The translations under genes were made by a program, and so were the position numbers. The notes under the pieces are model-generated. The model worked only from the letters and a program-made list of their open reading frames with translations. It ran no database searches and was not told where the DNA came from. A stretch of 32,000 nucleotides of DNA. Source: Nitrosococcus oceani ATCC 19707 (GTDB taxonomy: Bacteria > Pseudomonadota > Gammaproteobacteria > Nitrosococcales > Nitrosococcaceae). The stretch spans positions 1,650,001 through 1,682,000 of the forward strand of contig NC_007484.1 in NCBI RefSeq assembly GCF_000012805.1, in the 5' to 3' direction. Position 1 is the stretch's first letter, and every line of letters starts with the position of its first letter. Positions 186 through 27,751 of the stretch are shown in pieces.

Positions 186-463
186 TTGGAGTTTCGCCAT
201 GAATTCGCGCTTCAACGGGCGCTTTGGGTTGGCCACGACTTAGCGCGCAAGACCCTCCATTGGGTATTACCCTCCACGGGCATCACTTCCCGGCCTTCCG
301 CCGGTAGGTCGCCCTCTTGGCAATGGGAAAATGTACCGCGAATTCATGGCGAAACGCGGGTAATGTTGGCCCTCGTGTTCGGCGTGCCGTTTCACTTCGC
401 CTGCCTGCAGCAGGCAGGCGAGCTCACTAGGGGGTTGCTGAACATCCATGTTTAGCTTCAATG
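186..463 (-). mobile_element. tnpB-less miniature derivative (copy 1) of the IS1341-type element at 19785-21240: left end fused to the right-end/omega-RNA region
   Basis: On the minus strand it begins CATTGAAGCTAAACATGGATGT...GAAGTGAAAC, matching 19785-19850 upstream of tnpB-2. It ends ...CTACCGGCGGAAGGCCGGGAAGTGATGCCCGTGGAGGGTAATACCCAA...GCGCGAATTCATGGCGAAACTCCAA, matching 21088-21240 (tnpB-2 3' end plus tail). There is no tnpB. Track ORFs 186..455(+) and 267..512(-) lie inside it. Confidence 0.8.
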
Positions 464-1527
464 TGTTTTTCTGGCATTTGCCGCCGCTTCTGTATGGCGC
501 GGGCAAATTCACGAAGTAACTGCTCGCTTTCCTCCCAGCCTATACAGGCATCGGTGATGCTTTGGCCATAGGTAAGAGGGGTGTTTGGGATGACGTCCTG
601 GCGTCCTGCTACGAGATGGCTTTCCAGCATAACCCCCATGATTCGCCTATCGCCCGCAGCAATTTGTCCCGCAATATCCCTGGCAACCAGAACTTGCTTC
701 TTGGGATTCTTGCTGCTGTTGCCATGGCTGCAATCAATCATGACTTGAGGCCGAAGGCCCGTTTGAATAAGATTATGGGCCGTCTCGTTGACGCTTGCTG
801 CATCGTAATTAGGTTTCTGCCCACCCCGTAAAATGAGATGGCAATCTGGATTTCCGGCAGTTGAAAAAATAGCCGAACGGCCAGCCAAGGTGAGGGAGAG
901 AAAATGATGGGGCTTTGAGGCCGAGACGATAGCGGACATGGCGGCACCTAAGCTGCCGTTGGTCGCATTCTTAAAGCCAACCGGACATGAGAGTCCCGAG
1001 GCGAGTTCCCGATGCACTTGACTTTCAGTTGTGCGAGCCCCGATTGCGCCCCAGGCAATTAGATCAGCGATATATTGTGGGCTAACGAGATCCAGGTATT
1101 CGGTGCCTGCCGGCACACCTGTTTCGGCCAGATCCAACAGCAGCCTGCGGGCCAAGCGCAAGCCTTCATTAATCTGAAAGCTGCCGTCCAAATGGGGATC
1201 GTTAATAAGCCCTTTCCAGCCTACTGTAGAGCGAGGTTTCTCAAAATAAACGCGCATGACGATGAGCAATTCATCGGCAAGCTCATCAATTAGTAGCTTG
1301 AGTCTTTTCCCATAATCCCGTGCAGCCTGGGGATCATGGATGGAGCAGGGGCCAGCGACCACCAGCAGGCGGTCATCTTTCCCGCCGAGCACTTCCTGAA
1401 TGGCTTGCCGGGTTCGATAGACTGTTTTTGATGCCTCGCTGGTAATGGGCAAGCCTTCATGGAGTTGGGCCGGGGGAATAACTTCTTGAATGTTCTTAAT
1501 GCGAAGATCTTCAGTAGGAAAGCTCAT
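427..1527 (-). CDS. 3-deoxy-7-phosphoheptulonate (DAHP) synthase, class I (AroG/F/H type)
   Basis: 366-aa ORF. The N-terminus MSFPTEDLRIKNIQEVIPP resembles E. coli AroG (MNYQNDDLRIKEIKELLPP). It also has FEKPRSTVGWKGLINDP and GLSCPVGFKN motifs. The last 11 codons and the stop (427-462) lie inside miniature element copy 1. Confidence 0.93.
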   Translation of the reverse strand: MSFPTEDLRIKNIQEVIPPAQLHEGLPITSEASKTVYRTRQAIQEVLGGKDDRLLVVAGPCSIHDPQAARDYGKRLKLLIDELADELLIVMRVYFEKPRSTVGWKGLINDPHLDGSFQINEGLRLARRLLLDLAETGVPAGTEYLDLVSPQYIADLIAWGAIGARTTESQVHRELASGLSCPVGFKNATNGSLGAAMSAIVSASKPHHFLSLTLAGRSAIFSTAGNPDCHLILRGGQKPNYDAASVNETAHNLIQTGLRPQVMIDCSHGNSSKNPKKQVLVARDIAGQIAAGDRRIMGVMLESHLVAGRQDVIPNTPLTYGQSITDACIGWEESEQLLREFARAIQKRRQMPEKHIEAKHGCSATP

Positions 1528-3265: not shown

Positions 3266-5080
3266 ATGTCGTTTATTCATTATCGCATTATTCCCAAAAA
3301 TCCCCAGGCCCACCTGTTCCAGGTGACGCTTACTATTTTAGAGCCTGCTCCCGAAGGCCAGTGTTTGTCGCTACCGGCATGGATTCCTGGGAGCTATTTG
3401 ATCCGCGATTTTGCCAAGCACGTGGTCCAGCTTAGGGCCGAATCCCAAGGGCATCCCCTTCCCGTCGAAAAATTGAGCAAATCTCTCTGGCAATGCGCGC
3501 CGAGCGGGGGGCCAGTGACAATTAACTATGAGGTCTATGCCTGGGACAGCTCTGTGCGGGCCGCCCATCTGGACACCTTCCATGGTTTTTTCAACGGAAC
3601 CAGCGTTTTTCTGCGGGTAGAAGGGCAGGCTCATGAACCCTGCACCGTCACCCTTTTACCGCCAGAGGGGGAAACTTACCGCCACTGGCGGGTGGCTACC
3701 GCTTTACCTCGGGCTGGCGCCGAGCCGTATGGTTTTGGCGACTATCAGGCGGGGGACTATGAGGAACTGGTTGATCATCCCGTGGAAATGGGTGAGTTTA
3801 GCCTGGTTACCTTCGAGGCTTGCGGCGTTCCCCACGATATCGCCATCACCGGCCGTCATCGGGCTGATATGGAACGTCTGAGCCGGGATCTGAAGATCTT
3901 ATGCGAGCACCATATCCGCTTCTTCGGTGAACCAGCGCCTATGGATCGGTATGTCTTTTTGGTGACCGCCGTGGGCGAAGGATATGGGGGACTGGAACAT
4001 CGAGCTTCGTGTGCTTTGTTATGCAATCGGAGCGACTTGCCCCAAGCAGGAGAAACCGAAGTTGGGGAAGGTTACCGGAATTTTCTTGGCCTATGCAGTC
4101 ATGAATATTTCCATACCTGGAATATCAAGCGTATCAAGCCCGCCGCTTTTGTCCCTTACGATCTTCAGCAAGAGAATTACACCCGCCTGCTTTGGGCTTT
4201 TGAAGGGATTACCTCCTATTATGACGATCTGGGGCTGGTGCGCTCGGGGCTGATTAGCCAAGAGAGTTATTTGGAGTTGCTGGGACAGACCATCACCCGG
4301 GTGTTGCGAGGCTCGGGCCGGCTTAAGCAAAATCTAGCCGAATCCAGCTTTGATGCCTGGACGAAATTTTACCAGCAGGATGAAAATGCTCCCAATGCTA
4401 TCGTGAGTTACTATACCAAGGGTGCATTGGTAGCCCTGGCGCTGGATCTAACCCTGCGGTGGGAAACCCACGGCGAGTGTTCCTTGGATGGGGTGATGCG
4501 GGCATTATGGGAAAGTTATGGTAAGACGGGGGTAGGCGTGCCTGAAGACGGGGTAGAACGTCAGGTTGCCGAGGTTTCAGGATTGGATATAACGGATTTC
4601 TTTGAAGTAGCGCTGCGGCGGGCGGAGGATCTTCCCTTGCAAGCGCTGTTGGCCCAGGTAGGGATTTGCTATGCCCTGCGCGTCCCGGAATCCAGTGATG
4701 ATAAAGGCGGCAAGCCTGGCAAAGGGGGCACGCCTCGCGCTAGGCTAGGCATCCGCTTGGTTCCGAATGAAAAAGAGGCCAGGATCAGCCAAGTCTTCGA
4801 TGAGAGCGCGGCTCAATGGGCCGGGCTCTCAGCCGGGGATAGCCTCATTGCCGTAGATGGTATCAGGGTGACCGCCAGCAATTTGGAGAAAGTCATTAGC
4901 TCTTATCCAGGAGGAGCGAGAGTTATCATCCATGCTTTTCGGCGGGATGAATTGCGGGAGTTTGAGGCTGCTTTGCAACTGCCTCCCAAGGATACCTGCG
5001 TGCTGACTATTGATGAAGACGCCTCCCCAACCGCTGTAGTGGCCCGGGAGGCTTGGTTATTGGAGTTTCGCCATGACTGA
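3266..5080 (+). CDS. M61 family (glycyl aminopeptidase-like) zinc metallopeptidase with C-terminal PDZ domain
   Basis: 604-aa ORF with HExxH zinc motif HEYFHTWN. PDZ-like segment LGIRLVPNEKEARISQVFDESAAQWAGLSAGDSLIAVDG. RBS AAGGTGG lies upstream of the ATG. The last 6 codons and stop (5060-5080, LEFRHD*) are supplied by miniature element copy 2. Confidence 0.88.
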   Translation: MSFIHYRIIPKNPQAHLFQVTLTILEPAPEGQCLSLPAWIPGSYLIRDFAKHVVQLRAESQGHPLPVEKLSKSLWQCAPSGGPVTINYEVYAWDSSVRAAHLDTFHGFFNGTSVFLRVEGQAHEPCTVTLLPPEGETYRHWRVATALPRAGAEPYGFGDYQAGDYEELVDHPVEMGEFSLVTFEACGVPHDIAITGRHRADMERLSRDLKILCEHHIRFFGEPAPMDRYVFLVTAVGEGYGGLEHRASCALLCNRSDLPQAGETEVGEGYRNFLGLCSHEYFHTWNIKRIKPAAFVPYDLQQENYTRLLWAFEGITSYYDDLGLVRSGLISQESYLELLGQTITRVLRGSGRLKQNLAESSFDAWTKFYQQDENAPNAIVSYYTKGALVALALDLTLRWETHGECSLDGVMRALWESYGKTGVGVPEDGVERQVAEVSGLDITDFFEVALRRAEDLPLQALLAQVGICYALRVPESSDDKGGKPGKGGTPRARLGIRLVPNEKEARISQVFDESAAQWAGLSAGDSLIAVDGIRVTASNLEKVISSYPGGARVIIHAFRRDELREFEAALQLPPKDTCVLTIDEDASPTAVVAREAWLLEFRHD

Positions 5081-14389: not shown

Positions 14390-14803
14390 CTAGTCGGGTG
14401 TTTTCTGGCTTTGCACATAGGCTTTAAGTGTCTCGATAGTTGCCCCGCCCGCGCTACAAGCGAAATACGATCTCGACCACAGCGCGGCGCTCTTGCTCAA
14501 GTTCGGGAGGTGGGTATTCAACAAGCGCACGCGCCGGGATGAGGTGGACTTCAAGTTGTTGACCAACACGCTGATCGACAGCTTTGGCGGGTATTCCACG
14601 AGCAAATGGACGTGGTCTTCCTCGCCATCGAACTCAAGGATGCGGCAATCGAGTTTCTCGCAAGCTGACTCAAACGCCTCTCGTAGCTGCCCGAGTATAT
14701 AGCCATCGAAGACCTTGCCTCGGTACTTCGTTGTGAAAACGAGATGGACGACAAGCCGCGTAACGCTGTGTCGGCCTCGTCGATAATCTTCTTGCACACT
14801 CAC
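14390..14803 (-). CDS. tnpA: IS200/IS605 family Y1 (HUH) transposase TnpA
   Basis: HUH motif DHVHLLVEYPP. Catalytic Tyr region IETLKAYVQSQ. N-terminal YRRGRHSVTRLVVHLVFTTKYR. The track ORF runs to 14875, but homologues start near the in-frame GTG at 14803 or 14797. Confidence 0.9.
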   Translation of the reverse strand: MSVQEDYRRGRHSVTRLVVHLVFTTKYRGKVFDGYILGQLREAFESACEKLDCRILEFDGEEDHVHLLVEYPPKLSISVLVNNLKSTSSRRVRLLNTHLPNLSKSAALWSRSYFACSAGGATIETLKAYVQSQKTPD

Positions 14804-14847
14804 TTGATTTTCTTCGTTGCAGCCTTTAATCTGTAGGCATTGTAGCA

Positions 14848-16053
14848 ATGAACACTGATATGTTGAAAGCCACAAAGATACGCCTCTACCCTACGAGGGA
14901 GCAGGCGGAGTTTCTGAACCGCCAGTTCGGTAGCGTGCGGTTTTGCTATAACACCGGCCTTCGCATTATGTCTCACCGCTATAAGCGACACGGCCAATCC
15001 TTGAGCGCCAAGTATGACATCAAGAAATTGTTGCCTGTGGCCAAGAAGTCCCGTAAGTATGGATGGTTGAAGGAGGCGGATTCGGTTGCGCTCGCTCAAG
15101 CGTGTATCAATCTCGACAAGGCGTTTCAGCGTTTTTTCAAGGAAAAGAAAGGCTATCCCCGGTTCAAGCGCAAGCGTGGCAAGCAGTCGAGCTACCATTG
15201 CATGAGCGTGAGCTGCGGTGAAAGCTGGGTCAAGGTGCCGAAGCTCGGCCCCATCAAGGCTAGAGTTCATCGGTCCGTTGAGGGCAAATTGAAAAGCATC
15301 ACCCTGTCGCGCACCGTTACCGGCAAACACTACGCGTCTCTCCTGTATGAAACCGAGCAACCTGTCCCTGAGCCGATGACGGCTATCGACGCCACCAAGG
15401 TGCTCGGCTTGGACATGGGTCTCTCGCACCTGGCGATTGACTCCACTGGACGAAAAGTAGCCAATCCACGCTTTATCAAGCAGGTTCAGAAAAATCTCAA
15501 GCGCAAGCAACAGTCGCTGTCACGAAAGCAAAAAGGCAGTTCCAAACGAGCAAAAGCACGCCTACTGGTCGCTAAGGCTCACGAGCGGGTCGCTGATGCC
15601 CGCAGTGACTTCCAGCATAAACTGTCCCGGCAGATCGTTGACGACAACCAAGCGGTGATCGTCGAGACGCTGAAAGTCAACAACATGATGAAGAACGCCA
15701 AGCTCGCCAAGCATATCGGCGATGCCTCTTGGCACGCCTTGATCGCCAAGCTGGCATACAAGGCCAAGGAGCAGGGCAAACATCTGGTCAAGATCGACCC
15801 CTGGTTTGCCAGCTCAAAAACTTGCCATGTATGCCAGCACAAGATGGATGCCATGCCACTAAATATCCGGTCGTGGGCGTGCCCTACCTGCCACACGCGC
15901 CATGACCGCGACATCAACGCGGCGCTGAACATCCAACATCAAGGCATTTTGAAGTTGAAGGCGGAAGGGCTGTCCGTCTCTGCCCATCGAGGCTTGCGTA
16001 AATCCGGCATGCCGCCGGTGGCTGCCGTTGAAGTGGGAAGCTCCGTCCGATAG
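14848..16053 (+). CDS. tnpB: TnpB (IS605 OrfB) RNA-guided endonuclease, catalytic residues intact
   Basis: 401 aa. N-terminal KIRLYPTREQAEFLNRQFG. RuvC-I LGLDMGL, RuvC-II VIVETLKVNNM, Zn finger CHVCQH...CPTCH, RuvC-III HDRDINAALNI. Confidence 0.93.
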   Translation: MNTDMLKATKIRLYPTREQAEFLNRQFGSVRFCYNTGLRIMSHRYKRHGQSLSAKYDIKKLLPVAKKSRKYGWLKEADSVALAQACINLDKAFQRFFKEKKGYPRFKRKRGKQSSYHCMSVSCGESWVKVPKLGPIKARVHRSVEGKLKSITLSRTVTGKHYASLLYETEQPVPEPMTAIDATKVLGLDMGLSHLAIDSTGRKVANPRFIKQVQKNLKRKQQSLSRKQKGSSKRAKARLLVAKAHERVADARSDFQHKLSRQIVDDNQAVIVETLKVNNMMKNAKLAKHIGDASWHALIAKLAYKAKEQGKHLVKIDPWFASSKTCHVCQHKMDAMPLNIRSWACPTCHTRHDRDINAALNIQHQGILKLKAEGLSVSAHRGLRKSGMPPVAAVEVGSSVR

Positions 16054-16761: not shown

Positions 16762-18267
16762 ATGAGTCCTAAGCTTTCTTCCCGTGGTTTAGAAGAAAAA
16801 CGCACCCTTTGGATCGTGCTGGCTATCGTGCTCCTGTTTGCCCCTTTGTTTCGGGCCGGGAACAGGCCACTACCCCTGATGATCCTGGAGTTGGCGGCCT
16901 TGGTGCTGCTCGCTCTATTTTGGATTCAGTGGAAAAAACAGCGGTCCATCAGCGTTGCCGAGACCGTCATGGTGGGGGGGATTTTGCTTATCCCCTTACT
17001 CCAGCTCATCCCTTTGCCCCCACAATTCTGGGCCGAGTTTCTCCCCGGGCGGGCCTTTTACGCCGACGGGCTTCGCCATGCCCTGGGGGAGCAATTTTTT
17101 TCCGGGCACTGGCGTCCCCTGGCCCTCATTCCCTCCTACGGAGAGGCCGCCTGGCTAGCCTTGCTTCCTCCGGTGGCGGTTTTTCTGGCCGTCCGGAGTT
17201 TGTCTTCTCAGCAGCTACAGAGGCTGATCTATTTATTTTTAGCCATGGCTACGTTCCAGGCCGTGCTGGGGTTAATTCAATACGGCGCGGGTCCAGAAAG
17301 CATCTTTCGTTTAGGCAATCAACATTATAGAGACAGCGCGGTAGGCACGTATGTCAGCCGCAATCACCTGGCGGGCCTGCTGGAAATGGCCTTGCCCCTT
17401 GCCCTGGCGCTCCTTATGGCGACGGTGGGGCAATCATCCCAACTTGCCTATCAGCGGGGGGGATGGCGCCAGCGCCTGCTAGCCTGGGGCAACCGGCGGG
17501 GCAATCGTTCCATGCTGTATGCCGCCATAGCCCTGGTGATTTTGCTGGGTATCATATTTACCCGTTCCCGGGCGGGTATTCTGTTGGCCATGGTGGGACT
17601 CTTTCTAAGTTTTCTGGCCTTTGCGGGAAAAATTGGCAATCGAAAAACCTACGGTACAGTGGGGGTGCTCGTCTTCGCGGGGTCGATACTAGCGATAGAA
17701 ATTGGGCTTGCCCCGGTCTTCAATCGTTTCGCGGCCTTGGATGAGCCCATGCAAGAGGGGCGTTGGGGGATTTTTTCCGGGACACTGGGCGCCATTGGCG
17801 AGTTTTTTCCTGTTGGAAGCGGCAGTGGAAGTTTCGCGGCAGTCTTCCAACGTTTTCAGCCGGCGGATTTCGTGGGTGGATTCGTTCACCGGGCGCACAA
17901 TGATTATCTGGAGTGGCTCCTGGTAGGCGGGTTACCGGTTGCCGTCCTTATTATCGCCGGCCTTTTGCTCTACTTTTGGCAGTGGTTCAAAGTCTGGCGT
18001 GGTAACCATGATTCCAGCTTCTCTTTTATTCAGATAGGAGCGGGGATAGGGCTGCTCCTGCTGCTGCTCCATACCCTGGTGGACTTTAATCTCCATATTC
18101 CCGCCAACGCTATTTTTTTTGCTTTTCTCCTGGGAATCTTTTTTCATCCGCCAAAAGCGCGGGAGCGCAGGCGGCAAAAAGAAACAATATTGTCAGTGGC
18201 AGAGGCCATGCCCTTGAAGCTGCGGGAAATACCACCGGAAAATCAGGTCAATCCTTTTGCTGGATGA
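16762..18267 (+). CDS. O-antigen ligase / Wzy_C family polytopic membrane protein
   Basis: 501 aa with about 10-12 TM helices. Signature loop HRAHNDYLEWLLVGGLP, typical of the O-antigen ligase family. Confidence 0.8.
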   Translation: MSPKLSSRGLEEKRTLWIVLAIVLLFAPLFRAGNRPLPLMILELAALVLLALFWIQWKKQRSISVAETVMVGGILLIPLLQLIPLPPQFWAEFLPGRAFYADGLRHALGEQFFSGHWRPLALIPSYGEAAWLALLPPVAVFLAVRSLSSQQLQRLIYLFLAMATFQAVLGLIQYGAGPESIFRLGNQHYRDSAVGTYVSRNHLAGLLEMALPLALALLMATVGQSSQLAYQRGGWRQRLLAWGNRRGNRSMLYAAIALVILLGIIFTRSRAGILLAMVGLFLSFLAFAGKIGNRKTYGTVGVLVFAGSILAIEIGLAPVFNRFAALDEPMQEGRWGIFSGTLGAIGEFFPVGSGSGSFAAVFQRFQPADFVGGFVHRAHNDYLEWLLVGGLPVAVLIIAGLLLYFWQWFKVWRGNHDSSFSFIQIGAGIGLLLLLLHTLVDFNLHIPANAIFFAFLLGIFFHPPKARERRRQKETILSVAEAMPLKLREIPPENQVNPFAG

Positions 18268-18280
18268 GTTTTAAGTTTAA

Positions 18281-19333
18281 ATGGCCGCCCATGATGCTTC
18301 CTATAAAAGGCTGTTTTCCCACCCCGAGATGGTAAGAGATCTGCTGCAAGGTTTTGTGCGGGAACCCTGGGTTCAGCAGCTGGATTTTTCTACCCTGGAG
18401 AAAGTCAGCGGCAGCTACGTGACGGATGATTTAAGGGAGCGGGAAGACGATATTATCTGGCGCCTCCGCCATCAGGAGGGTTGGATGTATATCTACCTGT
18501 TGCTGGAGTTCCAATCCACGGTAGACCCCTATATGGCGGTAAGAGTGCTGGCCTATGTGGGTTTACTCTATCAGGACCTGATTAAAGCTCGGTATATCGC
18601 GCCCAATCAGAAATTGCCGCCGGTCTTTCCATTGGTACTTTACAACGGTGGCCCGCGCTGGAGGGCGGCGACGGAGGTCGGTGACCTGATAACGCCGTTA
18701 GAGGGCGGGTTGGAACGTTACCGTCCTAGTCTACGCTATCTTTTAGTCGACGAAGGCGATTACCAGGACGAAGCGCTCGCGCCATTGAAAAACCTGGTTG
18801 CGAGTTTATTTCGCTTAGAGAACAGCCGGACCCCGGAGGAGCTCTTACAGGTTTTGCGGAACTTGCTACAATGGTTACAAAGCCCGGCGCAGAAGGGGCT
18901 GGAGCGTGATTTTACGCTCTGGCTGAAGCGGGTGTTATTACCGGCCCGTCTGCCCGGTGTGGAAATTCCTTCCGTTGCCAGCTTAGAGGAGATGAACAGC
19001 ATGTTAGCCGAACGCGTGGTGGAATGGACCCAGCAGTGGAAGCAAGAAGGTATTCAAGAGGGTATTCAGCAGGGTATTCAAGAGGGTATTCAGCAGGGTA
19101 TTCAAGAGGGCATTCAGCAGGGTATTCAAGAGGGCATTCAGCAGGGTATTCAAGAAGGTATTCAGCAAGGCGAAACCCAAGTTTTGCGCCGACTGCTTGC
19201 TCGCCGTTTTGGTCCTTTGCCCGAGTGGGTGGAAGCTCGTCTCCAAGCAGCGGATACCGCTGCCCTGGAAGAATGGGCCGAGCGGGTGTTGGAGGCAGCG
19301 ACTTTGGATGGGGTCTTTCAAGAAAAACCCTAA
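18281..19333 (+). CDS. Rpn-family (YhgA-like, PD-(D/E)XK) recombination-promoting nuclease / putative transposase with DUF4351-like C-terminal domain
   Basis: N-terminal HDASYKRLFSHPEMVRDLL...DIIWRL...YIYLLLEFQSTVDPYMAVRVLAY, typical of Rpn/YhgA nucleases. C-terminal ...LLARRFGPLPEWVEARLQAADTAALEEWAERVL. Contains 10 in-frame GIQE/GIQQ repeats. Confidence 0.85.
   Translation: MAAHDASYKRLFSHPEMVRDLLQGFVREPWVQQLDFSTLEKVSGSYVTDDLREREDDIIWRLRHQEGWMYIYLLLEFQSTVDPYMAVRVLAYVGLLYQDLIKARYIAPNQKLPPVFPLVLYNGGPRWRAATEVGDLITPLEGGLERYRPSLRYLLVDEGDYQDEALAPLKNLVASLFRLENSRTPEELLQVLRNLLQWLQSPAQKGLERDFTLWLKRVLLPARLPGVEIPSVASLEEMNSMLAERVVEWTQQWKQEGIQEGIQQGIQEGIQQGIQEGIQQGIQEGIQQGIQEGIQQGETQVLRRLLARRFGPLPEWVEARLQAADTAALEEWAERVLEAATLDGVFQEKP
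19049..19168 (+). repeat. In-frame tandem repeat, 10 x 12 bp (5 x 24 bp), GGTATTCAAGAG/GGTATTCAGCAG, encoding (GIQE-GIQQ)5
   Basis: Counted directly: units start at 19049, 19061, ... 19157. The paralogous fragment at 21883-21918 has only 3 units. Confidence 0.95.
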
Positions 19334-19346
19334 ACGCAGACCGCGG

Positions 19347-19530
19347 TGTCCCCTCTCCCCTTACCGGGTGAGAGAGAACGAGAGAGAAATCTAATGCCCC
19401 TCTCCCTCTTGCGGGGGAAGGCGAGGGAGAAAAATCTAGTCCCTTTCCCCTTGCAGGGTGGGAAAAGGCGAGGGAGAAGAATCTAATGTCCCTCTCCCCC
19501 TTGCAGGGGGAGAGGGTGAGGGTGAGGGGG
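19347..19530. repeat. Array A: four tandem ~45-49-bp hairpin repeats (CCCCTCTCCCC-TTGCA-GGGGGAGAGGG type) ending in a G-run tract
   Basis: Units start at about 19347, 19396, 19441 and 19488. Each has a C/T-rich arm, a short loop, a G/A-rich arm and an AATCTAAT linker. The last unit ends GGGGGAGAGGGTGAGGGTGAGGGGG (19506-19530). There are no unique spacers. Confidence 0.9.
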
Positions 19531-19784
19531 TTAAACAAAATTTGGTTCGAGCTAAAAAATATGTTGTCGAACGCAACTTTACGTTTTATTCCCTTGGGGA
19601 GGTAAACGAGGTTCTCCTCTTATCCCTGGGAAAGAGAATAATGGGGGTCGGTGCGGCACGCCTGGCGAGCCTGTGAAGAGAAAGAAAATCTCTTCCTTGT
19701 TTCAATCCCCGGAAAGTTTTAAATCTAAATTTAACCCTTAAAATCTTAAAATTTCCATTGAGGGATATCGATGTTAATCGAATA

Positions 19785-21240
19785 CATTGAAGGAATACAG
19801 GGATGTATGACGACCCCCCAGCGAGCGTGCGAAGTGAAACTTTGCTGCGAGCGCGAGGGCAAGGTAAAGTGACGTTTGCGGCGGGCAAAATTCGCGGTAT
19901 CATTAAGGGCGCGGCTAGACAGTGTTGGAAGCACTACCTAGCCACTTGCCACCGACCCAATGAGAAAAGCATTGAGGCCATGACCGAGCACGATTCTACC
20001 ACTGTTCAGCGGTCCTATACATTCCGCTTCTACCCCACGAGTGTCCAGCGCCAGCAACTGGCTATGGAATTCGGCCATGCCCGGTGGGTATGGAACACCT
20101 GTCTGACCTGGCGGGGCCGTCAATATAGGGTACATGACAAGCGCGTGACTGGCGTTGATTTTAGCCGCCAGCTCACGTTCCTCAAAGGGTTAGGCCCGTA
20201 CGCTTGGCTCAAGGAGGCCAGCGCCACCTGCCTGATCCAAAAGCTCAGGGACCAGGACACGGCCTTCAGGCATTTTTTTGCGGGGCGAGCGAAGTATCCC
20301 CGTTTCAAAAAAAGAACGCATACCCAAAGCATCCGCTATCAACTCGATCAACGTCAGGTAGCAGGCATGTATCGAGCGGGCGAGTTTCTTAAATTGCCCA
20401 AACTCGGGGCACTCAAGCTCAAGTGGTCCCGCAAGCCCCAGGGCATCCCCAAGATGGTGACGGTCACCCAGGATTGCGTCGGCCGTTATTGTGTTTCGTT
20501 CATGTGCGAGGAAACCCTCCAACCCCTACCGCGAAAGCCAAACGGTATCGGTGTTGATTTAGGGGTGTGCGATGTGGTGGTGACCTCCGAGGGCTGGAAG
20601 TCCGGTAATCCTCGGCACCTACGCACGCATACCCGGCAACTCAGAAAAACCCAGCGCAGGCTATCCCGCAAGCGTAAGAGCAGTGTTCGTTGGCATCGTC
20701 AGCGGATACGGGTTGCTAAAGCTCATGCCAGGGTGAGCAATACCCGCCAGGATTGGCTGCACAAGCTCACCACGGCGCTGATTCGCCAGGCGGGGTTCAT
20801 TGCCATGGAAACGCTCAACGTCAGGGGCATGATGGCCAATAGACGGCTATCCAAGGCGTTGGGCGATGTGGGGATGCATGAACTCAAGCGGCAAATGGAA
20901 TACAAGGCTAAGTGGTATGGCCGCGAGTTTAGGCAAGTAGACCGCTGGGCGCCCACCAGTAAAACGTGCTCGGTGTGTGGCGCAGTGCAAAAAGCCATGC
21001 CGCTCAAGGTCCGCGAGTGGACCTGCCCGGACTGCCAAACAGCCCATGACCGCGACATCAACGCGGCCAGAAATATTTTAATTTTAGCTACCGGCGGGAG
21101 GCCGGGAAGTCATGCGCGTGGAGGAGTATACCAACCGGCGGCGGCTTATGGCTGCTAAAGGACTCCATGGAAACGCGAATTGCAGCAAGGCGAGTGAGCT
21201 TGTCTGGAACAAGCGAACGAGACTTAGCCGCAAACTCCAA
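19785..21240 (+). mobile_element. tnpB-only IS200/IS605-family (IS1341-type) element; parent family of the miniature copies
   Basis: The left boundary is set where homology among the three copies begins (CATTGA/G motif). The right boundary is set where homology ends (AAACTCCAA, 21232-21240). The flanks reconstruct a hicB reading frame. No tnpA. Confidence 0.8.
19980..21158 (+). CDS. tnpB: TnpB (IS1341-type) RNA-guided endonuclease, catalytic residues intact
   Basis: Likely start MTEHDSTTVQRSYTFRFYPT (ATG 19980). The track ORF start at 19803 reads through the non-coding left end. RuvC-I IGVDLGV, RuvC-II IAMETLNVRGM, Zn finger CSVCG...CPDCQ, RuvC-III HDRDINAARNI. Confidence 0.92.
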   Translation: MTEHDSTTVQRSYTFRFYPTSVQRQQLAMEFGHARWVWNTCLTWRGRQYRVHDKRVTGVDFSRQLTFLKGLGPYAWLKEASATCLIQKLRDQDTAFRHFFAGRAKYPRFKKRTHTQSIRYQLDQRQVAGMYRAGEFLKLPKLGALKLKWSRKPQGIPKMVTVTQDCVGRYCVSFMCEETLQPLPRKPNGIGVDLGVCDVVVTSEGWKSGNPRHLRTHTRQLRKTQRRLSRKRKSSVRWHRQRIRVAKAHARVSNTRQDWLHKLTTALIRQAGFIAMETLNVRGMMANRRLSKALGDVGMHELKRQMEYKAKWYGREFRQVDRWAPTSKTCSVCGAVQKAMPLKVREWTCPDCQTAHDRDINAARNILILATGGRPGSHARGGVYQPAAAYGC

Positions 21241-21256
21241 GAGGAAGCTCTTAATA
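21088..21256 (+). ncRNA. Candidate TnpB omega-RNA (reRNA): scaffold 21088-21240 plus flank-derived guide from 21241
   Basis: This position (3' end of tnpB through the right end) is where TnpB omega-RNAs are known to be encoded. It is the only part of the tnpB region retained in the tnpB-less copies (core GGCCGGGAAGT(C/G)ATGC(G/C)CGTGGAGG). The 5' end and guide length are not determinable here. Confidence 0.5.
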
Positions 21257-21470
21257 GAGCCCACTATGAAATGATTGAAGACGATGAACCTTACTATGGA
21301 GAAATAAAGGAACTTCGAGGGATTTGGGCAACTGGAAAAACATTAGAGGAATGCCGACGTAATCTTAAAGATGCCATTGAGGGGTGGCTCTTATTAAGTA
21401 TTAGGAGGGGGTTACCGGTCCCAAAATTAGGCGACTATGAAATCAAGGAAGGCGAGGATGTCATGGCATA

Positions 21471-21687
21471 ATGCCCCGGCTAACTCCGGTTTCTTCTAAG
21501 GAGCTTATAAAGCGACTGAAGATTCTAGGATTTCAAGGGCTTTATACCGGCGGCAAGCACTTATACATGATCAAGGGTGAGCTGAGGCTGACCATACCGA
21601 ACCCACATAAAGATTAGTGCAGGTTTACTAAGAAGAATTCTTAGGCAAGCAAACATAAATCGTGACGACTGGCTGAAACTCAAGTAA
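21471..21687 (+). pseudogene. hicA: hicA-family toxin gene, frameshifted
   Basis: The ATG overlaps the hicB stop (TAATG, 21469-21473). It reads MPRLTPVSSKELIKRLKILGFQGLYTGGKHLYMIKGELRLTIPNPHKD* (stop 21615-21617). The expected C-terminus ISAGLLRRILRQANINRDDWLKLK* continues in the +1 frame (21613-21687). Confidence 0.7.
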
Positions 21688-21735
21688 ACGTGAAGGATGT
21701 GTACCCATGATGCGTTCCTCACCGCTTAGAGTTTA

Positions 21736-22083
21736 GAGCGTGATTTTACGCTCTGGCTGAAGCGGGTGTTACTACCGGCCCGTCTGCCCGGTGTGGAAAT
21801 TCCTTCCGTTGCCAGCTTAGAGGAGATGAACAGCATGTTAGCCGAACGCGTGGTGGAATGGACCCAGCAGTGGAAGCAAGAAGGTATTCAAGAGGGTATT
21901 AAAGAAGGCATTCAGCAAGGCGAAACCCAAGTTTTGCGCCGACTGCTTGCTCGCCGTTTTGGGTCTTTGCCCGAGTGGGTGGAAGCTCGTCTCCAAGCAG
22001 CGGATACCGCTGCCCTGGAAGAATGGGCCGAGCGGGTGTTGGAGGCAGCGACTTTGGATGAGGTCTTTCAAGAAAAACCCTAA
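21736..22083 (+). pseudogene. 3' fragment of an rpn paralogue (DUF4351-like C-terminal domain only); possibly still expressed as a small protein from 21835
   Basis: Aligns to 18902-19333 with 4 substitutions counted over about 310 non-repeat nt, and has 3 rather than 10 GIQ units. An in-frame TAG (21727-21729) lies just upstream. It retains the internal GAGGAG-N9-ATG (ATG 21835). Confidence 0.75.
21883..21918 (+). repeat. Short version (3 x 12 bp) of the GIQE/GIQQ tandem repeat
   Basis: GGTATTCAAGAG GGTATTAAAGAA GGCATTCAGCAA; compare 19049-19168. Confidence 0.9.
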
Positions 22084-22094
22084 CGTAGACCACA

Positions 22095-22231
22095 GTGTCC
22101 CCTCTCCCCTTGCAGGGGGTAAGCGCGAGAGAGAAATCTAATGCCCCTCTCCCTCTTGCAGGGGGTAAGCGCGAGAGAGAAATCTAATATCCCTCTCCCC
22201 CTTGCAGGGGGAGAGGGTAAGGGTGAGGGGG
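22095..22231. repeat. Array B: three tandem ~47-bp hairpin repeats of the same family as array A
   Basis: Units start at about 22095, 22143 and 22189. The first two are nearly identical (CCCCTCTCCC..TTGCAGGGGGTAAGCGCGAGAGAGAAATCTAAT). The last ends GGGGGAGAGGGTAAGGGTGAGGGGG (22207-22231). Confidence 0.9.
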
Positions 22232-22298
22232 TTTATGGATATAAAAGAAACGGATGAGAGATTAAGAAAATATCCTTTCTAACAGATCTGGAAGGACA

Positions 22299-23813
22299 AT
22301 GCCGATGCGCTTAGTACCGTTAGTATTAAAAGAAAGAATAATAGAACCAGAAGGAGAAAGGCCAAAAAATGGCAACTTTACTCCAGCGGTATATGAGGTA
22401 CTTTCATGCGAAAACAAGACACGGCCCTATCTAACGGGCGCCGTACTGCTAGCTGTGGACGTAGGCGCCGTGGGGGTGGCCTTTGCGGCCGCCGTGGCCC
22501 TGCGCTACAGCTTCGGGTCTGGTTTGAATTTCTCCACTTATTGGGAATTGTCGCCGCTTCTGCTGCTATTTTCGATCTTCTATGCTGGCGCCAAGCTCTA
22601 TTCCGGCACAATGTTTCCCCCGCCAGAAGAACTGCGGCGGCTCACCTATGCAACCAGCGCGGTGTTTCTGACGCTGGCTGTCTTCGCACTGCTGACCCAA
22701 ACCGGTATGCGGTACTCCCGGGGGGTATTTTTTCTGGCCTGGGGCTTGGCGCTGGTCGCGGTGCCGCTGGCCCGGGCGGCGATACGTGCCCTTTATGTCA
22801 GCCGTCCCTGGTGGGGTAGAGGGGTGTTGATTCTAGGGGCGGGATATACCTGCGCGCACCTGGTCCGCACGCTCCAGGAGAACCCTCAACTGGGATTGAA
22901 ACCCATAGCTCTGCTCGACGACGATCCGGTGAAACAGAAGCGTGAGCTGCATGGGGTTCCGGTCGTCGGTGCCTGCGCCTTGGCGCCGAAGCTTGCCCGA
23001 CGTCTACGCCTCAGCTACGCGGCTGTGGCCATGCCCGGTGTGTCACGCGCCCGGCTTGTAGAATTACTGGGACAGCACGGCTGGCCGTTCCGGCGCACGC
23101 TATTAATTCCCGACCTATTCGGCTTTTCCTCCCTGTGGGTTACCTCCCGTGACCTGGGCGGAATTCTGGGCCTGGAGCTGCGCGAACAGCTCCTGCTGCC
23201 AATCCCCATGCTGGTCAAACGGACCTTGGACTTGGTTCTCGCCCTGGTGGGTGGGCTGTTCATCCTGCCGCTCCTTGGGTTGATCGCTCTTGCCATCAAG
23301 CTAGATTCCAGGGGACCGGTGTTCTACCGCTCGGAGCGCATGGGCCGTGATGGCCACCGCTTCGTGGCACTCAAATTTCGTTCCATGCGCGGTGATGGTG
23401 AAGCGCTGTTGCGGGAATTATTACAGCGTGATCCGGAAAAGCGGAAAGAATACGAGCAGTATCACAAGCTCACCAGCGACCCCCGCGTAACGCCAGTGGG
23501 ACGCCTGCTCCGCGCCTGGAGCCTCGATGAACTCCCTCAGCTTTGGAATGTATTGAAGGGCGATATGAGCCTTGTTGGCCCGCGCGCCTATTTGGAGCGC
23601 GAGCGGCCAGACATGGGAGAAAAATCGAATCTCATCTTGAAGGTGAGACCCGGTATCACGGGCCTGTGGCAAGTCAGCGGCCGCAACGAGCGCACCTTCG
23701 GCGAGCGGGTGGATATGGACGTCTACTACGCCCGCAACTGGTCCGTTTGGCTCGACTTTTGGATTCTTGCCCGGACAGCCACGGCGGTTTTGCAGGGGAA
23801 GGGGGCGTACTGA
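22299..23813 (+). CDS. Polyprenyl-phosphate glycosylphosphotransferase (WbaP/EpsB-like priming sugar transferase)
   Basis: 504 aa. N-terminal TM helices followed by a Rossmann-like linker. C-terminal bacterial sugar transferase domain (...KFRSM...DELPQLWNVLKGDMSLVGPR...RPGITGLWQVSGRN...). The second ATG at 22305 has better RBS spacing. Confidence 0.9.
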   Translation: MPMRLVPLVLKERIIEPEGERPKNGNFTPAVYEVLSCENKTRPYLTGAVLLAVDVGAVGVAFAAAVALRYSFGSGLNFSTYWELSPLLLLFSIFYAGAKLYSGTMFPPPEELRRLTYATSAVFLTLAVFALLTQTGMRYSRGVFFLAWGLALVAVPLARAAIRALYVSRPWWGRGVLILGAGYTCAHLVRTLQENPQLGLKPIALLDDDPVKQKRELHGVPVVGACALAPKLARRLRLSYAAVAMPGVSRARLVELLGQHGWPFRRTLLIPDLFGFSSLWVTSRDLGGILGLELREQLLLPIPMLVKRTLDLVLALVGGLFILPLLGLIALAIKLDSRGPVFYRSERMGRDGHRFVALKFRSMRGDGEALLRELLQRDPEKRKEYEQYHKLTSDPRVTPVGRLLRAWSLDELPQLWNVLKGDMSLVGPRAYLERERPDMGEKSNLILKVRPGITGLWQVSGRNERTFGERVDMDVYYARNWSVWLDFWILARTATAVLQGKGAY

Positions 23814-23928
23814 GAGGATAAGCTGCAATAATTTCATTCAAAGAAATACATCGTCACCTAATGCATTTTTTTTATTAAAAAAACCTGCCTTTAAAACTTA
23901 AAACTTTTTGCTTAGGGGAAAATAATCC

Positions 23929-25149
23929 ATGAAAATTCTCATTCTTGGGGGGGACGGCTTTTGCGGTTGGCCCACTAGCCTGCATCTTTCCGCGCTTGGT
24001 CATGAGGTTGCCATCGTGGACAACTTGTCGCGCCGGTGTATCGATGTTGAGCTTGAGTGCGAATCCTTGACGCCGATCCGGCCCCTGGGCGAACGGTTGC
24101 GTGCTTGGAAAGAAATTTCCGGTAAGACCATCGCCTTCCACAACTTTGACGTGGCCGTGAACTATCAGCGCCTGCTGGATCTGCTCAGGGAATGGCAACC
24201 CCACGCCATTGTGCATTTTGCCGAGCAGCGAGCGGCGCCCTACTCGATGAAGAGCAGCCATCACAAACGCTACACCGTCAGCAACAACCTCAATGCCACC
24301 AACAACGTGCTTGCCGCCGTGGTTGAAAGTGGGCAGGACATCCACATTGCCCACTTGGGCACCATGGGCGTCTATGGTTATGGCACGGCCGGCATGAAAA
24401 TCCCGGAAGGTTACCTCCAGGTGAAAGTGGAAACCGACGAAGGCAAGCTGCTGGACAACGAAATTCTTTACCCGGCCAATCCTGGCAGCATCTATCATAT
24501 GACCAAAACCCAGGACCAGCTTCTGTTCTTCTTCTATAACAAGAACGACAAGGTCCGTATCACCGATCTCCACCAGGGCATCGTCTGGGGCACGCAAACC
24601 CAGGAAACCAGGCTGGATGAGCGCCTGATCAACCGTTTCGATTATGACGGCGATTATGGCACTGTTCTGAATCGTTTTTTAATGCAGGCGTCTATTGGTT
24701 ACCCTCTTACGGTGCATGGAACGGGCGGCCAGACCCGCGCCTTTATCCATATTCAGGATACCGTGCAGTGCATTCAGATCGCCTTGGAAAATCCCCCCGC
24801 TCCGGGTGACCGGGTGCAGATATTTAATCAGATGACCGAGACCCATCGTGTGCGTGATCTGGCCCAGATGCTCTCCGAGCGTACCGGCGTCAAGATTGAC
24901 TATCTGTCCAACCCCCGTAACGAAGCGGACGAAAACGACTTGCATGTCAAAAACGACCGCTTTCTCGCATTGGGTCTGGACCCGATCACGCTGAACGAAG
25001 GGCTCATGGAGGAGGTGACGGATATTGCCCGAAAATATGCTCACCGGTGCGACCAGAGCAAGATTCCTTGTACCTCGCTCTGGAAGCGGCCTAAGGAGAA
25101 AGCAAGTGAGTTGGTGCAGTTGCGGCATGTAGCCGGTAATCAGATGTAG
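23929..25149 (+). CDS. sqdB: UDP-sulfoquinovose synthase (SQD1/SqdB family)
   Basis: Collinear with remembered SQD1 motifs: ILGGDGFCGWPT, VDNLSRR, ESLTPI, VHFAEQRAAPYSM, HLGTMGVYG, TGGQTRAFIHIQDTVQCIQIALENP. Confidence 0.9.
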   Translation: MKILILGGDGFCGWPTSLHLSALGHEVAIVDNLSRRCIDVELECESLTPIRPLGERLRAWKEISGKTIAFHNFDVAVNYQRLLDLLREWQPHAIVHFAEQRAAPYSMKSSHHKRYTVSNNLNATNNVLAAVVESGQDIHIAHLGTMGVYGYGTAGMKIPEGYLQVKVETDEGKLLDNEILYPANPGSIYHMTKTQDQLLFFFYNKNDKVRITDLHQGIVWGTQTQETRLDERLINRFDYDGDYGTVLNRFLMQASIGYPLTVHGTGGQTRAFIHIQDTVQCIQIALENPPAPGDRVQIFNQMTETHRVRDLAQMLSERTGVKIDYLSNPRNEADENDLHVKNDRFLALGLDPITLNEGLMEEVTDIARKYAHRCDQSKIPCTSLWKRPKEKASELVQLRHVAGNQM

Positions 25150-25162
25150 AAAATTTCACTGA

Positions 25163-25906
25163 ATGAACATACATGAAAGATTTTTTCCAGAGGTTGGTGC
25201 TGGCGGTTTCAGCCGGGTGGATGGCACCATAGCATTCTACACGCGGATAAATGCTTTACTGCGCCCCGATATGACCGTGCTTGATTTTGGGGCGGGCCGT
25301 GGCCAAGGTCCTGTGGATGATCCCGTGCCCTACCGCAGGGAACTGCGCACCCTGAAGGGGAAATGTCGCAAAGTAATAGGCGCTGATGTGGATGAAGCGA
25401 TAAAAGAAAACCCTGCTATCGATGAAGGGCATGTGATAGCAATGGGCGCTCCATTACCGTTTAATGATCACTCCTTTGACTTGATTGTGAGCGATCATAC
25501 CTTTGAGCACCTCAGCGATCCAGCATCGGTGGCAGCGGAATTCGACCGGGTGCTTAAACCGGGCGGGTGGATCTGCGCCCGTACCCCCAACCGATGGGGG
25601 TATATTGGTTTGGGAGCCAACTTAGTACCCAACCGTTGGCATGTGGCTTTTTTACGCCGCTTGCAGCCCCATCGCCAGGAAATTGATGTCTTTCCCACGG
25701 TCTACCGGATGAATACCCAACGCGCGCTCAAACGTTATTTCCCTCTTGATGACTACGAGCACTGTCATTATGGTCAGTTTGCGGAGCCCGCATACTTTGG
25801 AAACTCGCGCCTGATGTGGGCGTTAATGCTCATAATATTTCGCTTCATGCCGGAGATTTTGGCCCCGACGTGGATGATTTTTTTGAAAAAAAAGCAGCCT
25901 TTTTAG
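25163..25906 (+). CDS. Class I SAM-dependent methyltransferase
   Basis: Motif I VLDFGAGRGQG and post-I/II segments ...FDLIVSDHTFEHL...VLKPGGWI. Confidence 0.8.
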   Translation: MNIHERFFPEVGAGGFSRVDGTIAFYTRINALLRPDMTVLDFGAGRGQGPVDDPVPYRRELRTLKGKCRKVIGADVDEAIKENPAIDEGHVIAMGAPLPFNDHSFDLIVSDHTFEHLSDPASVAAEFDRVLKPGGWICARTPNRWGYIGLGANLVPNRWHVAFLRRLQPHRQEIDVFPTVYRMNTQRALKRYFPLDDYEHCHYGQFAEPAYFGNSRLMWALMLIIFRFMPEILAPTWMIFLKKKQPF

Positions 25907-25978
25907 ATGGCTACCCGGAACCCTAGTTTCAACCTGCTTCGTGAGGAATGTCGCGCTAGGTATAATTGGGTAGCTACC

Positions 25979-27751
25979 ATGCGGGTACCCTCCCTAGGTA
26001 GTTTAAATCTGGTTACAGCCTTGGTATTGATAGGCGCGTTAGTATTTCTAAGCGCCTGCGCGGAACGTGGACAGCTAGCCCAGGCTCCAGGCAATACGCC
26101 GTTCTGGTTTGAGCCTCGGGCTAATCAGCAGCTTGACGAACAAGTTGCAAAGCTTTTAGCCAAGGAGGCGGCTGTTGTCGTATTGCGCGCGTCCTTGCAA
26201 GGCCCCATCGATCACTACGATTTGCCGGTGCTAGTCAATCGTCTGCGCCAAGCTGAATCATCGCTGCCTGTCCTCCTGTATACCTGGAATAGCCGTTATC
26301 TAGCGAAGGGTAATCGCAGCGGTAAAGAAATCATGAGATGGCTAGCCCAGGAATCCACCCTCCAAATGACCTCTCTTAAGGGTACTCCCATGCCTTCCTT
26401 TGGGGATGTCATGAATCCTGATTACCGGAGGCGCACCGTGGAGGCCATTGTTAAGGCTCTGGAGCAGAGTGGCGTGGATGGCATAGCCGTAGACCTGGCA
26501 GTTCGTACCCCGCGTTTCCGGCCAAAGCCGCTTGCTGAGCGGTGTGCCGCGCACCCGGAGTTCTGCGAGCAATACGCCCAGGGAATGGATACGCTTTTTG
26601 CCAGTCTTGACACAGCATTGGGGGAACGCCCGCTACTTTATAATGGCTTGTGGAATTTTGGCGAGGGAATGATCGATGATCAAATTGAATTACTGAAGCA
26701 TGCGGATGCCGCAATCGTGGAGTACTTTGGCATGAACCCACGGGAGAAAGCGCACTCCTTCAGTCAAGATATTTTACCTTACCTTGAAGTAATGCAGCAT
26801 TTAAAAGCAGAAAAGCAACTCTTCGTCTTTGGCCGGGGTCCGTGGACCTACACGAATTACCAGGAAGATTACCTCTGGCAGCGCTACCTCTACTGCGCTT
26901 TTCTTCTCGCTAAACAAAAAAATACCCTGTTTAAATACCATGCGAGCTTTCAGGTTCCAGCTCATGCAGGCCGATCAGGCGGCCTAGACGTTTACGCGGA
27001 TTGGCGGCTGGACCTTGGCGAGCCGGAAGGAGCGTACCAGCTTAAAAAGGGTTTATATATTCGCAAGTTTGAAAAGGGCATGGTAGTGGTTGCCCCCGAT
27101 GACGGTGAAGGGGGAACATTGACTCTAGATGCTTCTTTTTACACCCCTGAGGGCAAGCGGGTTCAGAGAGCGATTAATTTAAGTCCAGGGGAAGGCCAAC
27201 TCTTATTCAAGCAACGTTTGAATCGAAAATCCGCAAGCCATGTGATTGATGTGCAGTCTGCTGACTCGCCATTAAGTCACTGGCAAGGTGCCCAGCTAAT
27301 CCAGGATGGGGAGAGGGTCCCCTATGTACGGCTATCCAAGGTTAAGAAGACACTGGAAGGAGAACATGATTTGTTGCTGAATCCGGTCCGTTCCCTCCAC
27401 ATGCCCGCCACTGTGAACTTAAAAATCCGGCTTCGGGAGCCCGGCGCGCGCGTGTTACTGATTGCCGAGGTGGATGATCCAAAGCGCCGCACTCCGTGGG
27501 TTGTTATTGAATTAGCCCCGCCGAAGAAAGTACGCTTGAAGGAGAAAGGGAATCCGGTGTTGTTCCGCACGCCTACTTCAGAAAATGCGCGCTTTTGGCC
27601 TTACCTTCCGGGTCCCCCGTTAACTCCTGGGCAGTGGCAGGAGCTGAAAATTGAAGGAAATAAATTATCGTCACGATTTCGATTCCAACGTTGGAGTCAT
27701 ATTCGTTTTGTCGGCGCCGTCGATGTAATGTCGGTGTCCGTGTCAAATTAA
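25979..27751 (+). CDS. Large lipoprotein of unknown function in the EPS locus (possibly a TIM-barrel glycan hydrolase-like protein)
   Basis: The track ORF starts at 25907. The internal start MRVPSLGSLNLVTALVLIGALVFLSAC gives a signal peptide plus lipobox. No motif was recognised with confidence. Confidence 0.6.
   Translation: MRVPSLGSLNLVTALVLIGALVFLSACAERGQLAQAPGNTPFWFEPRANQQLDEQVAKLLAKEAAVVVLRASLQGPIDHYDLPVLVNRLRQAESSLPVLLYTWNSRYLAKGNRSGKEIMRWLAQESTLQMTSLKGTPMPSFGDVMNPDYRRRTVEAIVKALEQSGVDGIAVDLAVRTPRFRPKPLAERCAAHPEFCEQYAQGMDTLFASLDTALGERPLLYNGLWNFGEGMIDDQIELLKHADAAIVEYFGMNPREKAHSFSQDILPYLEVMQHLKAEKQLFVFGRGPWTYTNYQEDYLWQRYLYCAFLLAKQKNTLFKYHASFQVPAHAGRSGGLDVYADWRLDLGEPEGAYQLKKGLYIRKFEKGMVVVAPDDGEGGTLTLDASFYTPEGKRVQRAINLSPGEGQLLFKQRLNRKSASHVIDVQSADSPLSHWQGAQLIQDGERVPYVRLSKVKKTLEGEHDLLLNPVRSLHMPATVNLKIRLREPGARVLLIAEVDDPKRRTPWVVIELAPPKKVRLKEKGNPVLFRTPTSENARFWPYLPGPPLTPGQWQELKIEGNKLSSRFRFQRWSHIRFVGAVDVMSVSVSN

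Follow-up and report, generated by a model that had tools for sequence, protein, structure and literature searches.

Where does the hicB antitoxin gene of Nitrosococcus oceani ATCC 19707 begin? In the stretch of DNA analysed here (the window: 32,000 nucleotides of contig NC_007484.1, positions 1,650,001 to 1,682,000 of the forward strand; all coordinates below are positions in this window), the open reading frame (ORF) that carries HicB starts within the 3′ end of a tnpB gene, and an orphan ribosome binding site and start codon lie to the left of the same gene. A first-pass annotation of this DNA had proposed that a tnpB-only insertion sequence of the IS1341 type sits within the first codons of hicB. 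This proposal held: the ends of the element could be defined by comparison of its copies, and its excision restores hicB. The stretch 19789-21240 (+) is a tnpB-only element of 1,452 bp, belonging to the IS200/IS605 family, IS1341 type, and it is inserted between hicB codon 6 (ATT) and codon 7 (GAG). Taken together, the insertion, its boundaries and the guide described below are very probably as given here. The coordinates of all features are collected in Table 1.

Table 1. Features of the interrupted hicB locus and of the related mini copies (positions in the window).
Feature	Position	Strand	Basis
IS200/IS605-family element, IS1341 type	19789-21240	+	Comparison with two mini copies and with L003, L084, L085, L087, L091, L001 and L006; excision restores canonical hicB
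Left end (LE)	19789-19979	+	Subterminal hairpin 19792-19811 with its foot at element base 4; blastn matches to LE copies in loci
tnpB-2 coding sequence, 392 amino acids, apparently intact	19980-21158	+	Pfam domains; start Met of relatives; invariant D193/E277/D359; structure match
Omega-RNA scaffold (tnpB 3′ end and right end), terminal motif TCCAA 21236-21240	21085-21240	+	RNAalifold and covariance model
Predicted omega-RNA guide, equal to the TnpB target in the restored site, GAGGAAGCTCTTAATAGAGC, 16-20 nt	21241-21260	+	First bases past the conserved right end; model of Karvelis 2021
Most likely transposon-associated motif (TAM)/TnpA target site CATT (family C-N-T-Y), directly 5′ of the left end	19785-19788	+	16 left flanks; empty-site reconstruction
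Orphaned hicB 5′ end: ribosome binding site GAGGG 19760-19764, ATG 19771, codons 1-6 MLIEYI	19760-19788	+	Direct reading; homologue consensus MLIEY[IV]EEAL
hicB 3′ part, codons 7-82 and stop	21241-21471	+	Pfam UPF0150 match starting at 21241
Fusion ORF, 119 amino acids: 43 right-end codons and hicB codons 7-82	21112-21471	+	ORF list; Pfam match from residue 44
hicA toxin pseudogene, frameshift at approximately 21612-21617	21471-21687	+	HicA_toxin PF07927, full only after frame correction
Mini copy 1, 274 bp, no ORF: LE and omega-RNA module	186-459	-	Repeat and tblastn searches; covariance match 186-310
Mini copy 2, 299 bp, no ORF	5060-5358	-	Repeat and tblastn searches; covariance match 5060-5227

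The orphan start and the resumption of hicB at 21241, both described in the first-pass annotation, were read exactly where it had placed them: GAGGG is followed after 6 nt by the ATG at 19771 and then by TTA ATC GAA TAC ATT. Joining 19788 to 21241 yields a HicB protein of 82 amino acids that starts with MLIEYIEEAL (MLIEYIEEALNRAHYEM...). This protein matches the UPF0150-like profile PF21748 over positions 1-64 of 64 with 111.5 bits, compared with positions 4-64 and 102.1 bits for the fusion ORF. With the joined HicB as query, 522 homologues were retrieved (E ≤ 1e-5); of the 120 proteins listed, 83 likewise have a length of 82 amino acids. The expectation that MLIEY.. fits the N-terminus of this family was borne out, as 21 of the listed homologues start with exactly MLIEYIEEAL and all 119 listed homologues from outside the window carry an N-terminal segment of the MLIEY type; homologues devoid of such a segment, which the first-pass annotation had named as the finding that would speak against it, were thus not seen among them. 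Comparison with the family therefore confirmed that the six orphan codons spell its exact consensus N-terminus, an agreement that lies far beyond chance.

At the DNA level, uninterrupted homologues read GAATACATTGAGGAAGC across the junction (in the following, a slash within a sequence marks a joint). The junction DNA is ATGTTAACGGAATACATTGAGGAAGC in locus L088 and ATGTTAATAGAATATATTGAGGAAGC in L089 and L090, and the same is found in the window at 19771-19788 plus 21241 onward. In a second comparison, the homologue DNA is ATGTTAACGGAATACATTGAGGAAGCACTG for L088 and ATGTTAATAGAATATATTGAGGAAGCC for L089 and L090, to be set beside ATGTTAATCGAATACATT/GAGGAAGCTCTT for the window. The empty site reconstructed for the window is ...GAATACATT/GAGGAAGCT..., with the joined site ATGTTAATCGAATACATTGAGGAAGCTCTTAATAGAGC. 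Three joins to 21241, from 19785, 19788 or 19791, had been described as in frame in the first-pass annotation. All three are indeed in frame, but trivially so, since they differ by multiples of three; only the join from 19788 matches the homologues, and the true joint is therefore 19788/21241. The join from 19785 was excluded since Ile6 is lost, and the join from 19791 since it adds a Glu that is seen in no homologue.

The right end was defined by comparison of the copies. It reads ...CTCCAA (21240) in common with 12 related copies, among them both mini copies of the window, and all copies of the same clade terminate with ...A(A/T)TCCAA. In the window the right end ...AAACTCCAA stops at 21240 and GAGGAAGCTCTTAAT opens at 21241, and the base following the terminus is G, A and T in the three copies of the window. 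Because the terminus is shared and the bases after it differ between the copies, the right end was placed at 21240. On the left side, every copy opens with G-R-A-G, followed by a hairpin and then by GACGACCCC; in the window the LE starts with GAAGGA, again followed by the hairpin and GACGACCCC. This hairpin is kept through compensatory changes, with 78.6% of the alignment cells paired compared with 18-40% in slid controls. RNAalifold did not call the small hairpin in the LE, and the paired-cell test targeted at it was made afterwards. The stem-loops of the right end belong to the covarying structure described below.

The only ORF inside 19789-21240 is tnpB, and no tnpA (Y1 transposase) is located within the element. 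The flanks join without duplicated bases, i.e. there is no target-site duplication. All the defining features of the IS200/IS605 family that are legible in sequence were found, among them the absence of terminal inverted repeats and of target duplication, insertion 3′ of a conserved motif of 4-5 nt, and a scarless empty site. Further copies were obtained from N. oceani AFC27 (L003, L091) and from metagenomes (L084-L087, L001, L006 and others). A scan of genome contigs with the TnpB-2 protein returned only two distant loci, and a scan of metagenomes with the TnpB alignment yielded only relatives that are at most 52% identical, which were of use in the RNA model and in the counts of flanking bases. 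No promoter or terminator signal above shuffled expectation was detected in a scan of 19400-21900. Two to three N. oceani assemblies on record contain the sequences of the window TnpB and of the fusion ORF, and hence the insertion is not private to one assembly. No description of this N. oceani element was found in the searched literature.

The product of the element, TnpB-2, is encoded within the ORF 19803..21158, which matches HTH_OrfB_IS605 (PF12323), OrfB_IS605 (PF01385) and Cas12f1-like_TNB (PF07282), all above the Pfam cut-offs. The true start is the ATG at 19980 and not that at 19803. Homologues begin at this Met, so the 191 nt upstream of it are non-coding left end. The RuvC residues D193, E277 and D359 are invariant in 13 relatives (alignment A2), and the corresponding motifs GVDLG, AMETLN and HDRD align with their counterparts in the top PDB match, the designed TnpB-like nuclease 9yyg. 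The ISDra2 TnpB structures 8H1J and 8BF8/8EXA were matched at full length (E about 1e-71). Additionally, TnpB-2 keeps the CxxC...CxxC zinc ribbon. Judged by these features, TnpB-2 looks functional. It is already annotated on record as RNA-guided endonuclease TnpB, and the genome is published. TnpB proteins from plasmids of Azotobacter, Marinobacter and Methylophaga are approximately 44% identical to TnpB-2; the ends of their elements are unrelated, and the covariance model gave no match in these plasmid loci. Elsewhere in the window there is a separate IS605-type element (14390-16053), in which a Y1 tnpA (14390..14875, minus strand) overlaps and diverges from tnpB-1 (14848..16053). The tnpB-1 product is 36% identical to TnpB-2, and the ends of this element show no similarity to those of the tnpB-2 element.

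For the omega-RNA, RNAalifold predicted from four close copies a common structure of 45 pairs, eight of them with compensatory changes. The covariance model R1, built from those four copies, detected 31 copies across the window and the loci fetched for comparison, both mini copies among them, and all matches not cut by a contig end are full-length model matches. The three matches in the window all end at the element boundary defined by the copies (21240, 186 and 5060). Copies of the same clade end with ...CCAA and those of a sister clade with ...TCAAG, while the weakest matches vary. On the model-fitted alignment, 92.9% of the cells are paired compared with 33-39% in slid controls, and changes on both sides occur in 43 of the 45 pairs. 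A search of the window against Rfam gave no family at the gathering threshold. Since the scaffold ends at the right boundary, the predicted guide starts at 21241. This supports the first-pass annotation, which had placed the guide from 21241 onward: both the structured RNA and the conserved right end stop at 21240.

Which bases form the TAM? The hexamer CATTGA or CATTGG had been noted next to all three left ends, and it does adjoin them, at 19785-19790 and at the left ends of the mini copies (459 and 5358, minus strand). The TAM had been sought within this hexamer. That part stands, with CATT as the most likely motif; GA or GG are the first two bases of the element itself. Among 16 independent left flanks, CATT occurred seven times, CGTT and CATC twice each, and CCTT, CTTC, CACC, CGAT and GCAT once each. 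Thus, 14 of 16 conform to C-N-T-Y, with C at -4 in 15/16, T at -2 in 13/16 and T or C at -1 in 16/16. The reconstruction of hicB places the boundary after 19788, i.e. cleavage after CATT. In nearly all copies the foot of the LE hairpin is at +4, with compensatory changes; together with cleavage after CATT this leaves a 5′ extension of 3 nt inside the element. Elements like ISDra2 have a 4-nt extension there (TTGAC/GGAA-hairpin). In IS608-type elements a DNA ‘guide’ is located just 5′ of the hairpin. From the flanks and the reconstructed site, the TAM is probably CATT. A pairing of TnpB with a CATT or a TTGAA TAM was not found in the searched literature.

The second motif, TTGAA, would apply if the left boundary was located 3 nt further to the right (19791/19792), with a TAM at 19787-19791 and an ancestral HicB of 83 amino acids starting with MLIEYIEEEAL. 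An intact allele would then read ATTGAAGAGGAAGCT, compared with ATTGAGGAAGCT for the CATT joint. TnpB-2 is related over its full length to the TnpB of ISDra2, which has TTGAT as its TAM, and the window sequence TTGAA/GGAATACAGGG can be set beside the ISDra2-like left ends on Deinococcus plasmids, TTGAC/GGAAGAGGGG and TTGAC/GGGTGAGGGG. Moreover, all 16 copies have G at +1 and A at +3, the 19791 join is also in frame, and TTGAA resembles the right-end TCCAA, in line with the slight difference between TAM and transposon-encoded motif (TEM) described by Meers et al. (2023, PMC10055086). However, the extra residue occurs in 0 of the 119 listed homologues and the extra GAA is absent from the homologue DNA. 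The TTGAA boundary also leaves the conserved C at -4 (15/16) and A at -3 (10/16) unexplained, and it would put cleavage directly at the foot of the LE hairpin without any 5′ extension, whereas ISDra2-like ends have 4 nt. We therefore consider this boundary rather unlikely. The mini copies are neutral on this point. At mini copy 2, homologues of the M61 peptidase have a variable tail after the conserved AWL, so that AWLNAQVS and AWLSNAQVS are indistinguishable, and at mini copy 1 (DAHP synthase tail) the open frame past the element matches low-complexity sequences only.

Several observations weigh against a hicB interrupted by an element inserted 3′ of CATT. The search for an uninterrupted allele, suggested in the first-pass annotation, was successful for homologues (L088-L090) but not for the exact empty site: the junction 23-mer ATCGAATACATTGARGAAGCTCT had 0 matches in metagenome contigs. 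The closest uninterrupted HicB among those listed is only 80% identical, and the uninterrupted homologous sites come from other organisms (protein 70-80% identical), not from sister strains. The ends carry an ambiguity of 2 nt (GA 19789-19790 equals GA 21241-21242), so that the boundary is fixed solely by the multi-copy comparison of right ends. Two of the 16 left flanks, GCAT in L003 and CGAT in L004, do not conform to C-N-T-Y, and TTGAA/GGAA resembles the TTGAC/GGAA of ISDra2-like left ends. Fitting the alignment to the model favours the omega-RNA structure when covariation is counted. Finally, the window contains no tnpA with matching ends, the Y1 tnpA at 14390..14875 being that of the unrelated element.

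The shared GA was also considered as a 2-bp target duplication. This was rejected, since GA follows the right end in only 3 of 12 copies of the same clade (window 21241, L003 2868 and L084 1534). Its presence there may reflect a weak target preference or chance.

In the established TnpB model, the guide corresponds to the flank of the element and the target is the donor joint (Karvelis et al., 2021, PMC8612924; Meers et al., 2023, PMC10055086). From this model we infer omega-RNA transcription, guide use, cutting of the donor joint and repair at the hicB locus. The starting point is a non-autonomous IS1341-type element that very probably inserted, without target duplication and most likely 3′ of CATT, into a hicB gene of 82 codons. 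The tnpB 3′ end and the right end would be transcribed as omega-RNA, whose last 16-20 nt (21241 onward, GAGGAAGCTCTTAATA...) would serve as guide. TnpA provided in trans would excise the element and leave the scarless donor joint CATT/GAGGAAGC..., i.e. an intact hicB. This joint would be cut by the TnpB-omega-RNA complex, and repair of the break from a sister copy would reinstate the element. The occupied site would not be cut because the right-end TCCAA, which is not the TAM, precedes the guide-matching DNA there.

Most of these features have counterparts in known systems. With ISDra2 of Deinococcus radiodurans the element shares the TnpB architecture, the RuvC Asp-Glu-Asp, an omega-RNA that overlaps both the tnpB 3′ end and the right end, a guide from the flank, insertion at a short motif without duplication, and a subterminal LE hairpin a few nucleotides from the cleavage site. 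Unlike ISDra2, it lacks tnpA and is a non-autonomous IS1341-type element; its right end is TCCAA instead of TTCAAG, and its flank is most likely CATT (C-N-T-Y) instead of TTGAT. The IS1341 elements and palindrome-associated transposable element (PATE)-like elements of Geobacillus stearothermophilus (ISGst; Meers et al., 2023, PMC10055086) are similar in combining tnpB-only elements with mini copies that have no ORF but retain the LE and the omega-RNA right end, in their conserved TAM and TEM, and in donor joints that can be reconstructed from homologous uninterrupted sites. They differ in their end sequences and motifs and in the host, which is a gammaproteobacterial ammonia oxidiser in the present case. 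Thus, the element is of a known kind and illustrates established TnpB/IS605 biology. What it adds is only detail: ends defined to the base, a reconstruction of the donor joint, and a candidate TAM for which the searched literature gave no pairing with TnpB. The locus shows an insertion site of one TnpB clade naturally ‘before and after’, exact to the base, and it supplies a guide that can be tested directly (GAGGAAGCTCTTAATAGAGC) together with CATT and TTGAA as the two candidate TAMs of an uncharacterized compact nuclease.

Directly downstream of hicB is hicA, which overlaps the hicB stop codon (TAATG). After 48 codons the hicA frame runs into a stop (21617). The conserved C-terminal third of the protein (ISAGLLRRILRQANINRDDWLKLK) is encoded further on, in the next frame, up to 21687. 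The truncated HicA scored 23.4 bits, below the cut-off, over profile positions 1-42 of 58; the frame-corrected protein of 72 amino acids reached 46.3 bits over positions 1-58 of 58. With the insertion in hicB and the frameshift in hicA, both partners are disrupted, and the toxin-antitoxin locus is, judged by its reading frames, non-functional as a pair. Like type II HicAB systems with a small UPF0150-like HicB (PF21748), the locus has hicB upstream of an overlapping hicA and a full profile match in the restored protein; in contrast to them, an insertion sequence has inactivated hicB and a frameshift has inactivated hicA. The two events may have occurred in either order: once the toxin was lost, an insertion into the antitoxin gene would be harmless, or else the insertion would select for loss of the toxin.

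The long hicB ORF from 21112 had been interpreted as a fusion with the tnpB 3′ end, and this proved correct. It begins within the 3′ end of tnpB, though not in the tnpB frame, and then enters hicB; the UPF0150 match starts at residue 44 (nt 21241) and at profile position 4 of 64. By its composition the 119-amino-acid ‘hicB’ ORF is an annotation artefact of the insertion. This corrects the annotation: the N. oceani ‘HicB’ proteins of 107 and 119 amino acids on record appear as fusion artefacts and hicA as a pseudogene.

A right-end ORF of the form M[AT]AKG..NANCSKAS..RLSRKLQ reads in frame into an antitoxin-like gene twice, in the window (hicB) and in L003 (1416-2867, AFC27). The downstream gene in L003 encodes a Phd/HTH_3 protein, its ATG lies 8 nt past the element, and it is located just after a MazE-PIN pair. 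These are both of the full-length N. oceani copies that were seen beside an antitoxin-like gene. The in-frame arrangement is probably due to chance, because the ORF is frameshifted in L084. If the right-end ORF preserved translation of the antitoxin, this would explain why two N. oceani copies are in frame at antitoxin-like starts. That TnpB-2 is an active nuclease whose TAM, 5′-CATT (C-N-T-Y), is unusual in having no T at its start, with the mini copies of the window providing it with additional omega-RNAs in trans, or else that the right-end ORF keeps an antitoxin translated whenever the element lands in the right frame at the 5′ end of its gene, appears quite improbable.

As a further alternative, the insertion might have rewired the antitoxin, with a start in the right end (ATG 21112 or 21148) so that HicB would still be made, with an exchanged N-terminus. 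In favour of this, the fusion ORF is uninterrupted and in frame, as is the L003 right-end ORF with its Phd/HTH_3 gene, and two to three assemblies have the fusion protein on record. Nevertheless, a 1-nt indel breaks the right-end ORF in L084, its coding is not conserved, and two in-frame cases are expected by chance at about 1 in 9. Furthermore, hicA is already a pseudogene, which leaves no present selection for HicB activity, neither ATG is accompanied by evidence of a ribosome binding site, and the six lost N-terminal residues are highly conserved in the HicB family. We regard such a rewiring as very improbable. That the ATG at 19771 belongs to another gene or arose by chance, with the real HicB starting at the Met of MIEDDE or at 21112, has almost no likelihood left: gene callers did call the fusion ORFs of 107 and 119 amino acids, but the MLIEY-type N-terminus in every listed homologue does not support it, the orphan codons and the sequence from 21241 onward agree with the homologues at every residue and at nearly every base, only the joined protein covers the whole Pfam profile, and the fusion-ORF residues before 21241 are right-end sequence common to other copies of the element.

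Both mini copies retain the LE together with an omega-RNA-like module, and both are located at the ends of genes. Mini copy 1 takes the place of the 3′ tail of the 3-deoxy-D-arabino-heptulosonate 7-phosphate (DAHP) synthase ORF 427..1527, and mini copy 2 replaces the last five codons of the M61/PDZ peptidase ORF 3266..5080, just past the conserved AWL. The sister clade comes from soil and peat metagenomes (L020, L022, L024, L031, L034, L037-L040, L042 and L043) and shares the LE plan and the omega-RNA fold; the right end of this clade is ...GTCAAG, like the ...GGTTCAAG of ISDra2. In five sister-clade left ends that were read (L020, L024, L034, L039 and L042), LE base +2 (A or G) co-varies with a base immediately 3′ of the LE hairpin.

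The hicB::IS-hicA cassette is placed precisely between two copies of a direct repeat, which consists of the last approximately 430 nt of an Rpn/YhgA-like gene (18281..19333) and the 46-nt repeats following it, which resemble repetitive extragenic palindromic (REP) sequences. The two copies (18902-19532 and 21736-22233) are about 2.8 kb apart with 80-97% identity, which suggests a duplication or recombination around the toxin-antitoxin cassette. The neighbourhood (16762-31829) resembles a polysaccharide/O-antigen cluster, inside which the mobile and toxin-antitoxin DNA is wedged. Its genes include a Wzy_C ligase-like gene (16762..18267) and a sugar transferase gene (22299..23813), and the ORF 23929..25149, from a reading of its sequence alone, has the look of an NAD-dependent epimerase.

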